Shown: one piece after another, positions 3,145 through 9,931 of the stretch
Layout: the number at the start of each line of letters is the position of its first letter
Position numbering within the stretch: the first letter of the stretch is position 1
UHGV virus genome: UHGV-0180488
From: a virus
DNA length: 10,275 bases
Direction: 5' to 3' (one strand)
Made by a program: the position numbers and the translations under genes
Notes under the pieces: generated by a model
Seen by the model: only the letters and a program-made list of their open reading frames with translations
Database searches by the model: none
Told to the model about the DNA's origin: nothing

Positions 3145-4173
3145 TCATGAATCCATGAGGCGGCTATTGGCACCTGCTGTCACACCGCCACGACGAAGAT
3201 AACGCATCAGTGTTTCGGGCTTCTTCCATGTACCTTCCTGCATAATTTCAACCAAAGACACCTGTTTTTCAGCCATATCTATGGCGGCACCAACACGCGC
3301 ACTGTGGCCTGTCCACGTCCGGTAACGGCCTTTATTGGGGGTGGCATCACTCTTACCCAGCAGCGCCCAGGCGTCACTGAAAATCTTCTCCATCGCGGGC
3401 ACGGTTAATGGCGTGGTGGTGATCCGCGCTTTGTTGCTCCGGTGTACTGGCGGGAAAAGTATCGCATCCGGGTGCTCACGTAGTCCGGACGCGTCCAGCC
3501 AGTCATTGAGAACCGCAGTTGTCCAGCGGGAGAGCACCTTATCAAGTCCGGCGGCGGTCGTGATGGTTTTGGTGTGGGATACGTGAAGCGTTACAGTGTC
3601 ACCAGTCTGTTCCAGATCGCGAACACGCACGCGGGACATTTCAGCCATACGCAACAGGGTATTGTAGGCCAGGAACAGAAAAGCCCGGTTGCGCAGATCC
3701 ACCAGCCTGTCAGAGCGGGAGAGCAGCACGTCGAGCAGTTTCAGGTCATCCCAGCGCAGGGGCACTGCCTGGCCTGTGCGTTCGCCTTTTTCGGTTGCAG
3801 CTTCGCGCCGGATGCGCCGCATCGCCAGGGATACGCTTTTGTCATCAGAGAGTTGCGGCAGTCCGCATTGTGACAACAGCATATTGAGCATGGCGTAATG
3901 CTTTTCAATGGTGGTTGAAGCCAGATCCGCATCATGCAGTTGAAGCAGGTATTCGCGGGCAGCTTCCGGGGAGATCGGAAACCACGCAAGACCACGAGCG
4001 TGGCACCATCGCGCCCAGGAGTGAAAGACCAGGCGCAGATCGCGCAGTGTATTAGGTGAGTAAGCACCCTGGTCATTAAGGAACTGCATGAAATTTTTGG
4101 CGGCTTCCTGGTACTCAGCACCAATATCACGAAGAAACATGCCAGGATTACCGGAGATAATAAGTTTACTCAT
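3145..4173 (-). CDS. dre: Cre-family tyrosine site-specific recombinase, Dre-like, 342 aa
   Basis: The translation aligns along its length with P1 Cre as I recall it (e.g. AYNTLLRMAE vs AYNTLLRIAE; GHSARVGAAIDMAEKQVSLVEIMQEGTWKKPETLMRYLR vs GHSARVGAARDMARAGVSIPEIMQAGGWTNVNIVMNYIR, with the catalytic Tyr context conserved), at roughly 40-45% identity by eye. A rox-like site rather than loxP lies 153 bp upstream, which is why I call it Dre (the Cre homologue of phage D6). ATG at 4173-4171 with AGAGGTGA upstream. Confidence 0.92.
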   Translation of the reverse strand: MSKLIISGNPGMFLRDIGAEYQEAAKNFMQFLNDQGAYSPNTLRDLRLVFHSWARWCHARGLAWFPISPEAAREYLLQLHDADLASTTIEKHYAMLNMLLSQCGLPQLSDDKSVSLAMRRIRREAATEKGERTGQAVPLRWDDLKLLDVLLSRSDRLVDLRNRAFLFLAYNTLLRMAEMSRVRVRDLEQTGDTVTLHVSHTKTITTAAGLDKVLSRWTTAVLNDWLDASGLREHPDAILFPPVHRSNKARITTTPLTVPAMEKIFSDAWALLGKSDATPNKGRYRTWTGHSARVGAAIDMAEKQVSLVEIMQEGTWKKPETLMRYLRRGGVTAGANSRLMDS

Positions 4174-4316
4174 GTAATCATTTCACCTCTATAAATTGGT
4201 GTCGCTACGCGAAAAAACAAAAAATGACAGGCTAGTTATCCGTGAGAATTTAAAATTTAAGCCCTTGATTCGAACCATGACTTTTTGAGTCTGTCAATAC
4301 TGATCGTTTGATCATT

Positions 4317-4344
4317 ATTATATACTAACTTTAAATAATGCCAA
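4317..4344 (-). promoter_or_regulatory. Putative sigma70 promoter for dre, with its -35 inside the rox-like site
   Basis: On the minus strand: -35 TTGGCA (4344-4339), 16-bp spacer, -10 TATAAT (4322-4317). Predicted start near 4310, inside the GATC pair at 4302-4305 and 4310-4313. Sequence-only prediction. Confidence 0.35.
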
Positions 4345-4357
4345 TTATCTAAAGTTA
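4326..4357. other. rox-like recombination target site for the Dre-like recombinase
   Basis: TAACTTTAAATAAT (4326-4339), spacer GCCA (4340-4343), ATTATCTAAAGTTA (4344-4357). This is the rox site as I remember it (TAACTTTAAATAATGCCAATTATTTAAAGTTA) with one difference, C instead of T at 4349, which makes the arms imperfectly symmetric. Flanking C (4325) and G (4358) extend the palindrome. Confidence 0.85.
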
Positions 4358-4509
4358 GAAAGGGAGAAAATTTTTTTGAAAAAAAGGATCAAGTGATCAA
4401 AAAAGAAACCGTGCTATTAGTGGTAGTTAGACGCTTAAACCCAGGATTTTGAAGAAGGTTTTCTAAGAAGAACAATAAAAAATTCCATGTTGATCCTTTA
4501 CTCATCGTG

Positions 4510-4569: not shown

Positions 4570-5607
4570 ATGAATAAAAGAACAATCGAGAAAGAGTACA
4601 AACAGTTCCGGTCTGTTGCTGAACGTTGGAAGGAGCTGGTGGTATCAAACTCAGTGTTCCATGACACCAGTTATAACGGAGAGGAATTCCGTCATGTTGC
4701 TTTGACACATGATCCAGACGTCTTGAAAGAAGCCGAAGAATGCCTGGTCGCCTGGAAAGCATTTGTGGACGTATGCCGCAATGCTGGTGGGAAAAAGCTG
4801 AATATCGTTGAGACAGTATATCTTCCGATCCCATTCATCATTGAGGACACGAATCAAAGTACACACATTGTCGTATCTACAGCTTCGACTACCAGAACGT
4901 TCACTCGCGAGAGTTTGCTGAAAAAGTACGATAATGTCATTAAGAAAAGTAAAAAAAGCCCTATCTTTTCTCAGGTCGTAGATGCCCTTGAAAAAGAAAG
5001 ACATTTCTTTGCAATGGAGCCGGAAGGCGAACTCTATCGCGCACGAAAAGATGACTATACCGATGTGGTGCTGACCTCTGATCTCACATCTGACAACACC
5101 CTGTCTCGCTTAAGAGTGGGTGCGCACGGGGCGCTGGTGTTCTCACGCAATAAAGAATTGAAGATCCCTGTGGTTAATAACGTAGATGAACGCCGTAGTA
5201 TTACCGTTTATTCCGGTGTGAAGCCTATCCCTTGTGGCCCGCTGGGCGATTTTAGTCTGTATCGTGTGAACGACATCACCAGGAGTCAGCCAAGCTATGT
5301 GGCTAAGGCCTATATTCTGCGTAGCATTGAGTCCAGAAACCTGAGTTTTAACAACAAAAGCCAGGCGCTTCTGAACTCTACGCCGCCTGAGATCCTCCAG
5401 GTCATTGAAAGAAAGGTGAACGCGGCGAGAGAGGCGCTTATCCGCCTGGAAAAAATGGACATGGAGTTGATTGATGTCATGATGGCATCAGGCGATGACC
5501 TGACAGGTATCCGGCTGACCGATGCACGCAAGAAATACGGCAAAGAAATTGAGGAACGATACGGATACACGTTCAATCAAACAATGTCAGCAACAAAACT
5601 TCGTTAA
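4570..5607 (+). CDS. c1: C1-like phage repressor of lysogeny, 345 aa
   Basis: Position matches the P1/D6 layout (convergent with pacB, divergent from the lox/rox-recombinase unit). Local matches to P1 C1 as I recall it: LNIVETVYLPIPFII vs LNIPKTILYPVPNIL, VNNVDERRSITVYSGVKPI vs INGEFEKAKFSLYDSIEPI, SLYRVNDI vs KIYRLADI. Overall identity is low (perhaps ~30%) and the protein is about 60 aa longer than P1 C1. Confidence 0.7.
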   Translation: MNKRTIEKEYKQFRSVAERWKELVVSNSVFHDTSYNGEEFRHVALTHDPDVLKEAEECLVAWKAFVDVCRNAGGKKLNIVETVYLPIPFIIEDTNQSTHIVVSTASTTRTFTRESLLKKYDNVIKKSKKSPIFSQVVDALEKERHFFAMEPEGELYRARKDDYTDVVLTSDLTSDNTLSRLRVGAHGALVFSRNKELKIPVVNNVDERRSITVYSGVKPIPCGPLGDFSLYRVNDITRSQPSYVAKAYILRSIESRNLSFNNKSQALLNSTPPEILQVIERKVNAAREALIRLEKMDMELIDVMMASGDDLTGIRLTDARKKYGKEIEERYGYTFNQTMSATKLR

Positions 5608-7141: not shown

Positions 7142-8464
7142 TCAGTCTTCCTCTGGCGGGGTAATAGCAATATCGTCGTAAATATCAGCCGTAGCGGATG
7201 GGTCAAGCTCCAGTCCTTCATCATCGGCTTCAAACTCACCAGCTTTTCTTTCACCGTTGGCGTCGTAATCCCCCAGGCCTAACTGGTCAACTACTCTGGC
7301 AACATCTTCACGGCGCTGTTTGAGCCACTCTGAAAGCTCTGCTTTTTGTTTGGCGTACTCTTCGGCTTCACGCTGGATCTGGTCATCATCAACATCACTG
7401 CTGTCAACTACTGGCGGTTCCAGAAGCGTGATAGCTTTCGCCGCACGCGCAGCCAGGATTGCAGGAACACTTACCCCTTGCCGCTCGATGTATTCCGCAA
7501 CACCTATATCGTCCAGTTCTTCGCGCTCGCGCATACGTATAGCGGTTGCAATAACCCTGGCGGCGCGTGCATCAGCGCCAAGACGATAGTCAATCTCTTT
7601 GCTACGTTGCTCTGCCTGTAGGCGTGCAATGTCCAGTTTTTCTCTGGCCTCAGCCTCTTTAAATGCCTGCTGCCGCGCCCCCTGAATCAGTTTTTCCTGG
7701 CCTTGCTGGAGTTTTTGCTCTGTCTGATAAATGGCTGCGAGGCGGCTGATGAAGTCGTTCATGTAATAGGCGGCATCCTGCATGAGGCCGCAGAGACGCT
7801 GGGCCGGGTGTATCCCTTCCGGCTCGCCATCGCCTAAAATATCAATTTCTTTACGTAGCCGTGCCGCCTCCATGTCTACAATTGACTGGTATTCTATGGC
7901 GCGTTCCTGAGCCATCAGGATGGCCTTACGCAGATGTTCAGCCGCACCGTTCTGCATCATTTCACGGGCGACATTTTTCGACGGCAAGGTGGCACATTGT
8001 GCTGATTCGCCGTGGATCATTTGCGATGATCTCTGACTTGAAGATGCCTTTTTATCCTTTTCTGGGATCATTTTTGCTTTTTTATCGGCAAATGATCCCT
8101 TTGATAAATCCACTAACTCACTGTTATCAATGGGCTTATCAGCATGATCCGCGTTACGCTTGCGTGGCATCTCCCTGAATTGACTTGTCGCCGGCTTATT
8201 GTCAGTTTTTGTAAATTCTGATTCTTTTCCGCTCGCTCGTTGCTGTTTTTTTGTCCCACCAGCACGGGGTTGCTGGCGTGTTCTGGCGCGGTTCTTTGAT
8301 GGTTTAACTTTGGCCTGCACCTCATTTTTTTTCATATTGAGATGCTTTCTGGCAGTGTTGAAACTAAGGCCATTTTGTTCACAGTATTCCTTTACCGTGA
8401 TCCCTTTTTCCTCTTTCAGCGCCAGAAACCGGGCACGATGCTCTTCCCAATTAACCAGTGTCAT
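7142..8464 (-). CDS. pacA: Terminase small subunit, PacA-like, 440 aa
   Basis: N-terminal HTH-like segment (ITVKEYCEQNGLSFNTARKHL), a basic low-complexity linker, a coiled-coil-like middle and an acidic C-terminus. It lies immediately upstream of, and is coupled to, the large terminase gene, and contains a GATC cluster like the P1 pac site. Called by synteny and architecture, not by strong sequence recall. Confidence 0.65.
   Translation of the reverse strand: MTLVNWEEHRARFLALKEEKGITVKEYCEQNGLSFNTARKHLNMKKNEVQAKVKPSKNRARTRQQPRAGGTKKQQRASGKESEFTKTDNKPATSQFREMPRKRNADHADKPIDNSELVDLSKGSFADKKAKMIPEKDKKASSSQRSSQMIHGESAQCATLPSKNVAREMMQNGAAEHLRKAILMAQERAIEYQSIVDMEAARLRKEIDILGDGEPEGIHPAQRLCGLMQDAAYYMNDFISRLAAIYQTEQKLQQGQEKLIQGARQQAFKEAEAREKLDIARLQAEQRSKEIDYRLGADARAARVIATAIRMREREELDDIGVAEYIERQGVSVPAILAARAAKAITLLEPPVVDSSDVDDDQIQREAEEYAKQKAELSEWLKQRREDVARVVDQLGLGDYDANGERKAGEFEADDEGLELDPSATADIYDDIAITPPEED
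8015..8149. other. Candidate pac (packaging cleavage) site: cluster of five GATC hexamers inside pacA
   Basis: GATC at 8015, 8028, 8066, 8094 and 8146 (five in 135 bp against about 0.5 expected), in TGATC/GATCA contexts that resemble the TGATCA/G elements of the P1 pac site. The rest of the 1.3-kb gene has only two GATC. Confidence 0.45.
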
Positions 8465-8963: not shown

Positions 8964-9356
8964 TTACCATCTGCTTAAACGAACAATATGTCTTACTTTT
9001 GCGGACCACTTCCCTTTGGTTTTGTTGACTACCGCCTGCGCCAGCCTTAACTCGCTTTCATAATCAGCCTTACGCCCATCGTTTTCCGACAGCAAATAGC
9101 CTTCAACTTGTGGTACGGTCAGATAGTCCTGATCAACATTAAGTGGTCCTGTGGGTGCTCTGAACGGCGTTAGTTGCTTTGCGTTCCAGTTAAATCGAAT
9201 ACGTACGTCACGAACGGCAAGGGTTGCATACCCATGCACGGTACTTTCGTAACCTAGTTTTGTTTCGCCTGCATGACATGACGTGATTTTGCAGTCAAGC
9301 AACTTCCAGTCCATTTCCTTAGCTTGTGCAACTGTTAGCTTCTGCTCTTCGTACAT
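8964..9356 (-). CDS. Hypothetical protein, about 130 aa
   Basis: ORF on the minus strand. I prefer the ATG at 9356-9354 (GGGAGG 7 nt upstream) to the TTG one codon earlier used in the track. The ATG overlaps the TGA of the upstream gene by 1 nt. Confidence 0.6.
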   Translation of the reverse strand: MYEEQKLTVAQAKEMDWKLLDCKITSCHAGETKLGYESTVHGYATLAVRDVRIRFNWNAKQLTPFRAPTGPLNVDQDYLTVPQVEGYLLSENDGRKADYESELRLAQAVVNKTKGKWSAKVRHIVRLSRW

Positions 9357-9931
9357 CAAAATGCCTCCCAGTCAGTTGCCATAATGTCTACGCTGCTGGC
9401 AAACCAGTCAGAACGTGCTTGCAAAGCACCATCCATCATTACCAGACGTGGAAGCACGGAGACTTTGACGCCCTTTTGCACGTTGAATATTTCTTCCGGA
9501 AGAAAGCTAACCATCTTGTCCTTACTTTCAATGCAGCCGGGTTCAAGTGATATGTACTGTCCTTTAGGCCAGGATTTTCGGCGTGCGTCTAATCCGTTCA
9601 TTAACCAGTGGATTGCGACAGAAAAAGGAATGTTTGCTTTGGCAATGGACAGTCCACCAGCGACAGCCTGTTTATGAAACTTGAGGAGTTTTACAGCGGC
9701 CTCGGCAAGCGCAACATAAGGTTCTGGATGGACTTCGGTAAGGCTGCATCCACGAACTGTTACTGTCACAGCATGGGAATCGCCTTCTGATGCCGTTTCG
9801 ATGTTGACCCCTTTGTTTGACAGTGCGTGATACAAAGCGTCACCCATGCATGACCAGCGTTCATTGCGTCCAATGAACTCACTCAGGATGCGATCCTGCT
9901 CTGTATACGTTGCATTAGTCAAAACAGTCAT
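9356..9931 (-). CDS. Hypothetical protein, 191 aa
   Basis: ORF with a strong ribosome-binding site (AAAGGAGAGG before the ATG at 9931-9929), coupled to the next gene. No motif recognised. Confidence 0.65.
   Translation of the reverse strand: MTVLTNATYTEQDRILSEFIGRNERWSCMGDALYHALSNKGVNIETASEGDSHAVTVTVRGCSLTEVHPEPYVALAEAAVKLLKFHKQAVAGGLSIAKANIPFSVAIHWLMNGLDARRKSWPKGQYISLEPGCIESKDKMVSFLPEEIFNVQKGVKVSVLPRLVMMDGALQARSDWFASSVDIMATDWEAF

Follow-up and report, generated by a model that had tools for sequence, protein, structure and literature searches.

The window analysed here is the whole 10,275-nt stretch of a viral contig (UHGV virus genome UHGV-0180488). It carries, in order, the end of doc, a 268-aa ORF, a Tad2-like ORF, dut, two small ORFs, a dre-like gene, a rox-type site, a c1-like gene, pacB, pacA, lpa and a second Tad2-like ORF. 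This is the gene order of the immC region of phage D6, lpa-pacA-pacB-c1-rox-dre-orf-orf-dut. The features around the recombination site are as follows:

3145..4173, minus strand: gene for a Dre-type tyrosine recombinase of 342 aa, 89% identical to Dre, with matches to PF00589 and PF02899
4326..4357, plus strand: rox-type site, natural 'C25' allele; its 32-mer recurs in over 20 independent contigs and plasmids
4326-4339: dre-proximal arm of the rox-type site
4340-4343: rox core GCCA
4344-4357: c1-proximal arm, with T changed to C at 4349 (position 25 in loxP numbering)
4570..5607, plus strand: gene for a c1-type immunity repressor of 345 aa, annotated as c1 or phage repressor in D6 and in plasmids

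Comparison with public sequences confirms that the window belongs to a D6-type (P1-like) phage-plasmid of a lineage separate from D6. Nucleotide identity to D6 is 84.3% over 38% of the window (the dre side) and 76.7% across the immC part; at 76–84% overall, the window falls short of species-level identity to the phage (MF356679 / AY753669). The c1 gene is about 68–72% identical to that of D6, and the flanking intergenic DNA together with c1 is 64–73% identical. The best full-length relatives are plasmids of Shigella dysenteriae, E. coli and Escherichia fergusonii, at 91–94%, and the intergenic region that bears the site is nearest to E. fergusonii plasmids, at 94–95.5%. An identical c1 gene has PF27008 (Phage_P7_repressor_C1) on record, and a search for a P1-type C1 operator near the site gave no match at up to 3 mismatches. 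The original prediction of a D6-type element therefore holds as to type, given the immC gene order, the Dre-like enzyme and the rox site, but the element is not D6 itself. In short, the locus is a natural allele of a well-known site next to an uncharacterised ortholog of a well-known enzyme.

Two other aspects of the neighbourhood deserve mention. Of the two ORFs with a Tad2-like domain (anti-Thoeris, PF11195/DUF2829; 1070-1738 and 9356-9931, minus strand), the first encodes 222 aa, of which an N-terminal extension of ~135 aa has no family match; its counterpart in the close relatives L177-L180 is 146 aa long. Separately, dre-rox(-c1) segments bounded by IS26 or IS1 are present in large resistance plasmids, namely L003 (S. 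Typhi pK91) and L170-L175 (IncHI1B/IncFIB/IncY/IncN). In these fragments pacB is truncated, and some adjoin qnrS1. Such fragments may be kept as multimer-resolution modules after loss of the phage genes.

The recombinase had been described from its sequence as a member of the Cre family much closer to Dre than to Cre, and the comparison bears this out. It aligns with D6 Dre without gaps over its full length at 305/342 identical residues (89%; 37 amino-acid differences), whereas identity to Cre is ~40% as read off the alignment with the Cre entries of the PDB, which match at E = 5e-73; the PF00589 match scores 56.7 bits. The catalytic residues R175, K202, H290, R293, W316 and Y325 are intact and at the same positions as in Dre, for which R175, H290, R293, W316 and Y325 have been described (PMC4777119); K202 is the lysine of the beta2-3 hairpin. 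Three residues, which in Cre numbering are R43, P259 and K263, have been shown by experiment to discriminate rox from loxP (PMC4957104). The window enzyme has the corresponding R44, P259 and K263, which do not vary among 54 close relatives. The gene order, the 342-aa length, these specificity residues, the catalytic residues and the GCCA core are all shared with the Dre/rox system of D6 (AY753669; MF356679), and the differences include A258V in the enzyme and one arm base, at position 25, in the site. Two substitutions, R217W and A258V, are private to the window enzyme relative to the 20 other members of its clade (21 enzymes in total). The exact protein is found on 12 public contigs, two of them NCBI isolate assemblies. 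A protein scan of species-representative genomes returned only relatives of 42–49% identity, because the species representatives lack D6-type plasmids, and these served as an outgroup only. The window enzyme presumably recombines two copies of the site at 4326-4357 without accessory factors. Indirect support for this comes from the mismatch tolerance published for Dre and from the persistence of the allele in finished circular plasmids and beside enzymes 100% identical to Dre.

The site itself, TAACTTTAAATAATGCCAATTATCTAAAGTTA on the plus strand, reads as TAACTTTAAATAAT-GCCA-ATTATCTAAAGTTA. Our reference was the D6 site TAACTTTAAATAATGCCAATTATTTAAAGTTA, a misc_recomb feature of AY753669 (4909-4940 of that record, our L001) labelled 'region of crossover (rox) site for Dre recombinase'. 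The two are identical at 31/32 positions and the sole change is T to C at 4349, as had been proposed. The window site thus conforms to the rox pattern TAACTTTAAATAAT-GCCA-ATTATTTAAAGTTA at 31 of 32 positions and lies 152 bp upstream of the recombinase gene, a distance (~150 bp) shared with D6. A rox search allowing up to 3 mismatches hit the window at this place alone and gave no match in any of 200 dinucleotide-preserving shuffles. No second or orphan rox was found in the window at up to 3 mismatches or in the 21-kb loci at up to 8 mismatches, and both collection scans gave one site per contig.

The 14-4-14 layout proposed earlier is literally correct, in that the two 14-nt arms are complementary at 13/14 positions around an asymmetric 4-nt core, but the functional layout is probably different. 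When aligned to loxP with a 1-nt offset, the window site matches at 21/32 positions, against 8 at other offsets. This alignment, together with mutagenesis (PMC4777119) and natural variation, suggests a loxP-like layout with arms of 12/13 nt and a crossover region of 6–8 bp. The mutagenesis study suggested that the rox crossover region is similar in length to that of loxP, and found changes limited to the four central bases to be less disruptive than changes at positions 2 and 7 (PMC4777119). Natural variation points the same way. At least five central regions occur beside near-identical Dre-type enzymes (ATGCCAAT, ATACTAAT, ATGCTAAT, ACTCCAAT and ATCCCCAT; L002, L003, L079, L101, L110, L154, L176), and the changes all fall at loxP-numbering positions 15, 16, 18 and 19, the innermost base of the nominal arm included. 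This pattern supports a functional spacer of 6–8 bp, and the natural central regions may represent heterospecific rox classes. The engineered heterotypic sites rox7, rox8, rox12, rox61 and rox85 (Chuang et al. 2016) resemble these natural relatives in that the central region is varied and the arms are kept, although the engineered changes are at positions 2 and 7 of the 8-bp region and the natural ones at 2, 3, 5 and 6. The window site differs from both: its core is canonical and its change lies in an arm, a part of rox that Chuang et al. 2016 did not mutagenise.

To place the variant base in context, we assembled 65 loci (57 distinct) from viral contigs, metagenome contigs and finished plasmids, each with its site, recombinase and two flanks. 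At the position equivalent to 4349, C is present in 19/57 loci, T in 36/57 and A in 2/57, the last being distant loci. Because the loci are phylogenetically related, these counts overstate the number of independent events. That C at 4349 is a sequencing or assembly error can be dismissed for practical purposes. The window is a metagenome contig (ENA ERZ1034969 NODE_1346) whose record name indicates ~7x coverage, which would make such an error conceivable, but the same 32-mer recurs in more than 20 independent assemblies, finished circular plasmids among them, and this recurrence refutes it. The elements that carry the C site include plasmids completed as circles in E. fergusonii, S. dysenteriae and E. 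coli isolates.

The C allele adjoins enzymes that are 100% identical to Dre (in L084, L090 and others) as well as window-type enzymes, and canonical rox adjoins window-type enzymes in L156, L170, L174 and L175. Across all variable columns of 54 close enzymes, no protein column separates C sites from T sites; the scan returned clade-level associations only, the best at position 307 (p = 0.002), and the association of allele with enzyme clade has p = 0.07. Since both alleles adjoin both enzyme types and no column covaries with them, C at 4349 is a circulating rox polymorphism that is unmatched to the enzyme. As a widespread natural variant that also stands beside genuine Dre, it is ordinary and not a special adaptation.

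Instead, the allele follows the c1 side of the locus. Within the true-Dre clade, where the enzyme is constant, C is present in 8/9 loci with one c1 type and in 0/18 with the D6 c1 type (Fisher p = 4e-6, a value that ignores relatedness). Within the window clade, the allele follows the right-flank (c1-side) haplotypes, and the spacer and left flank reassort against it. C was always on the c1-proximal arm (19 loci), and the mirror change was seen in 0/57: on the dre-proximal arm, the mirror base is A in 55/57, T in 2/57 and never G. The restriction to one arm is explained by this linkage to the c1-side flank. The C allele does occur on two c1-side flanks that cannot be aligned with each other, which implies either two origins or an exchange within ~13 bp.

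Asymmetry of the arms is itself normal in the Cre-type site family. The Panto/pox system and related systems of Pantoea, Rahnella and Erwinia have arms of the TAACTT(T/C)ATATA type ~150–250 bp upstream of a Cre-type gene, as in the window, and a one-base arm asymmetry is frequent among them: the arms are unequal in 23/44 natural sites beside enzymes 42–49% identical to that of the window (Pantoea, Rahnella, Erwinia and allies). Asymmetry at the position equivalent to 4349 was seen in 0 of these 44 sites. Up to two asymmetries are explicitly tolerated by the criteria published for finding such sites (PMC10250229). These systems differ from the window in protein sequence (42–49% identity), in having T or C at position 10 on both arms and not A or G, and in the lack of an embedded promoter. 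Panto and Dre each recombine both rox and pox (PMC4957104).

Two further rox-like patterns turned up in the survey. The viral contigs L112 and L113 encode recombinases 55–57% identical to Dre beside a symmetric site, TAACTTTATATAAC-TGAC-ATTATATAAAGTTA, which at position 10 carries T, like loxP and the Pantoea-type sites, and not A or G; position 10 is therefore a lineage-variable specificity position. The sole match with both arms changed in the metagenome pattern scan, L160 (TAGCTTTAGATAAC-GGGG-GTTATCTAAAGTTA), was considered as a donor of the variant arm and rejected as unrelated. It lies on an actinobacterial-type contig of 60–75% GC with no Cre-type gene. There, at 411-512, GTTATCTAAAG is iterated in 4 copies, two of them forming the rox-like inverted repeat, upstream of a 467-aa replication-like ORF. 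These repeats are probably iterons or operators, and the resemblance to rox a coincidence of motif.

Could the variant base nevertheless matter for recombination? Position 4349 corresponds to loxP position 25, the mirror of position 10, in the C8-G9-T10/A25-C26-G27 block that separates loxP from rox and pox (PMC4957104), and the change from T to C turns A10:T into G10:C on the c1-proximal arm. Because 4349 falls within this specificity trinucleotide, a small effect on affinity at one half-site is possible. It is unlikely, however, that the C arm binds the recombinase appreciably less well and thereby alters cooperativity, the order in which strands are exchanged or the direction in which dimers are resolved. 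Such a reading draws on the position of the base in a trinucleotide that faces K43, R259 and G263 of Cre (R, P and K in Dre), and on a molecular-dynamics model of Dre/rox in which P259 and A258 pack against the thymine methyls of the base pairs around position 10 (PMC7438526); in that model, replacing A:T by G:C would remove a packed methyl. The confinement of C to one arm (19 loci against 0 with the mirror change) might also be taken as a sign of function, but linkage to the c1-side flank accounts for it. Moreover, in many independent plasmids the allele is stably associated with true Dre or with window-type enzymes, and Dre is experimentally tolerant, recombining sites with 1–4 half-site mismatches (PMC4957104, PMC10250229). 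Its substrates include pox, which differs by 1 repeat nucleotide and is recombined even without induction, lox8 (2 mismatches) and lox11 (4 per half-site) (PMC4957104, PMC10250229).

The original prediction had suggested that the asymmetry could affect binding cooperativity or the directionality of dimer resolution. The first of these finds no support in an allele present in 19/57 loci, some of them encoding Dre itself, and in the tolerance of Dre just described. The second fails on symmetry: two identical asymmetric sites regenerate themselves on crossover, so the exchange has no directionality, and the mirror variant that a bias would need was seen in 0/57 loci. A bias like that of an LE/RE-type pair, which by the logic of lox66/lox71 requires partners changed on opposite arms, is impossible between identical sites, and we found C on one arm only, with one site per contig.

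Another way in which the base could matter is through the enzyme. The private A258V lies beside P259 and might compensate for, or exploit, the G:C pair at position 10/25. V258 is confined to the window lineage (1/54 close distinct enzymes), the C site is present in 6/6 contigs examined (of 12 on record) that encode the window enzyme, and residue 258 contacts exactly these base pairs in the molecular-dynamics model (PMC7438526). In the same study, hydrophobic residues at 258 raised the rox activity of engineered Cre, and the authors remarked that a bulky hydrophobic residue at this position is absent from natural enzymes (PMC7438526). Nonetheless, we consider co-adaptation very improbable. C is far older and wider than V258 and is present with A258 enzymes in at least 18 distinct loci, the other arm keeps A:T, so that an adaptation would need to serve both arms, and the six contigs that combine V258 with C are one lineage and hence a single event from which co-adaptation cannot be established.

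The site may have a second function in transcription of the recombinase gene. The predicted elements around it, with the candidate pac site farther into the window, are:

4317..4344, minus strand: predicted sigma-70 promoter directed toward the recombinase gene, 11/12 match to consensus
4344..4339, minus strand: predicted -35, TTGGCA, made up of the rox core and one base on each side
4322..4317, minus strand: predicted -10, TATAAT, separated from the -35 by a 16-nt gap that corresponds to the dre-proximal arm
4302..4313: pair of GATC (Dam) sites on the dre side (at 4302 and 4310), just downstream of the predicted -10
4387..4398: second GATC (Dam) pair, on the c1 side (at 4387 and 4395)
8015..8149, minus strand: candidate pac site, five GGATCA/TGATCC-type hexamers in pacA, by analogy only

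D6 has the same arrangement of a -35 in the core and a TATAAT -10, and TATAAT is kept at a fixed spacing in every D6-type lineage, down to a clade of 70% identity, while the adjacent flanks diverge. An enzyme bound at rox would cover this promoter, so autoregulation of dre through it is a reasonable inference from the sequence. We rejected the idea that the whole family shares the embedded promoter: 0/42 Pantoea-type sites had a usable -10, in a test controlled with the opposite strand. P1 also differs, since all annotated cre promoters lie outside lox and cra is located between lox and cre (436 bp), whereas in the window the predicted -35 is inside the site and there is no cra.

With the c1-proximal arm directly upstream of the -35, the promoter raises the possibility that 4349, at about -40, matters for transcription and not for recombination, with A or G tuning UP-element-like contacts and thus dre expression. 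In favour of this are the 11/12 match of a promoter whose -35 lies in the rox core and the -10 retained at fixed spacing across D6-type lineages despite divergence of the flanks; the two arms would also stand at different promoter positions, which would provide a reason for unequal constraint. We regard this as improbable nonetheless. The promoter is a prediction, and spacer variants that cut the -35 match to 3/6 are also common (the natural central-region variants leave 3–4 of 6), which suggests weak constraint on the embedded promoter. A lone change from A to G at -40 is expected to have a small effect.

The GATC pairs that flank the site are the main polymorphisms among its relatives, where GATC is replaced by GTTC, GAAC or GGTC, and unlike the window, D6 lacks them. 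By analogy with P1, where three Dam sites are marked in the regulatory region of cre, the pairs may reflect Dam-dependent regulation. Analogy with P1 also underlies the candidate pac site. The hexamer cluster spans ~130 bp, 320–450 nt into pacA, and resembles the hexamer-flanked pac site of P1, which likewise lies in pacA; the distance is ~4.0 kb from lox in P1 and ~3.7 kb from rox in the window. A role in cyclisation is known for the P1 system, and the geometry of the candidate pac and rox would fit cyclisation of packaged DNA.

If the arm base is not matched to the enzyme, the distribution of the C allele calls for another explanation, and comparison of the flanks points to exchange at the site itself. 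Mosaic relatives of the window have their junctions at or within rox. On the left, up to -1, L080 follows the window (246/291 informative sites); on the right, from +6, it follows L084 (361/432). In the flank alignment, L080 shows no difference from the window across the dre side and all of the site but diverges 5 nt beyond it, and L084 and L090 show the opposite pattern. L084 in turn agrees with D6 as far as -1 and, from position 24 of the site, with L080, which places a crossover within site positions 1-23. Informative sites thus map one junction between -1 and +6 around the site and another to positions 1-23, an interval centred on the crossover region. In addition, L170 resembles L003 with only the central bases exchanged.

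We therefore favour, with good though not full confidence, a model in which the locus is the recombination module of a D6-type phage-plasmid and T to C at 4349 is a common, old and tolerated rox allele, inherited with the c1 side, with crossovers at rox reassorting the modules on either side. The module would consist of a tyrosine recombinase orthologous to Dre and its rox target, which lies ~150 bp ahead of the recombinase gene. If the analogy with Cre/lox and Dre/rox holds, each of the four arms of a pair of sites would be bound by one monomer, and strands would be exchanged in the central region. In cyclisation and dimer resolution, the module presumably has the roles of P1 Cre/loxP: after infection, exchange would close the terminally redundant phage DNA into a circle, and before partition it would resolve dimers of the plasmid. 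For P1 Cre/lox, these roles are attributed to Austin et al. 1981 (cited in PMC10879196). Because crossovers would fall in the central region and each arm would stay with its own flank, the C arm would be passed on together with c1, the immunity side. Where two D6-type elements share a cell, the same crossovers would reassort dre-side and c1-side modules, and for this reason the C arm would be found both with Dre and with the window-type enzyme. The mosaic exchanges were presumably catalysed by Dre-type enzymes. RecA-mediated short-homology recombination on the conserved 32-mer could mimic the pattern of breakpoints and is a weaker alternative.

A more elaborate reading would make rox a three-way composite, serving at once as recombination target, as the junction at which the c1 side and the recombinase side are swapped, and as the -35 of the recombinase promoter, with A258V an adaptation to the G:C pair that the variant arm carries. 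We consider this doubtful as a whole. If it were true, central-region changes would reset the exchange partners and the amount of enzyme together.

The comparison with P1 provides a frame for these results. Cre/loxP belongs to the same family and fold class as the window system, and its site also lies between c1 and the recombinase gene, ~4 kb from pac, but the arms differ at the trinucleotide 8-10/25-27, the central region is different and the proteins are only ~40% identical. For the finding as first stated, a known site beside a known type of enzyme, our analysis changes little. Some of its by-products, namely the junctions at rox, the diversity of central regions and the embedded promoter, may already have been described in the literature. 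The locus and its relatives have value as tools, since they offer a rox variant changed at a specificity position of the arm, four or more alternative central regions and a Dre ortholog of 89% identity, all of which could be assayed for orthogonality and activity. For the biology of D6-type elements, the junctions within the 32-bp site provide population-level evidence that the site of cyclisation and resolution is also a seam along which immunity and other modules are reshuffled.
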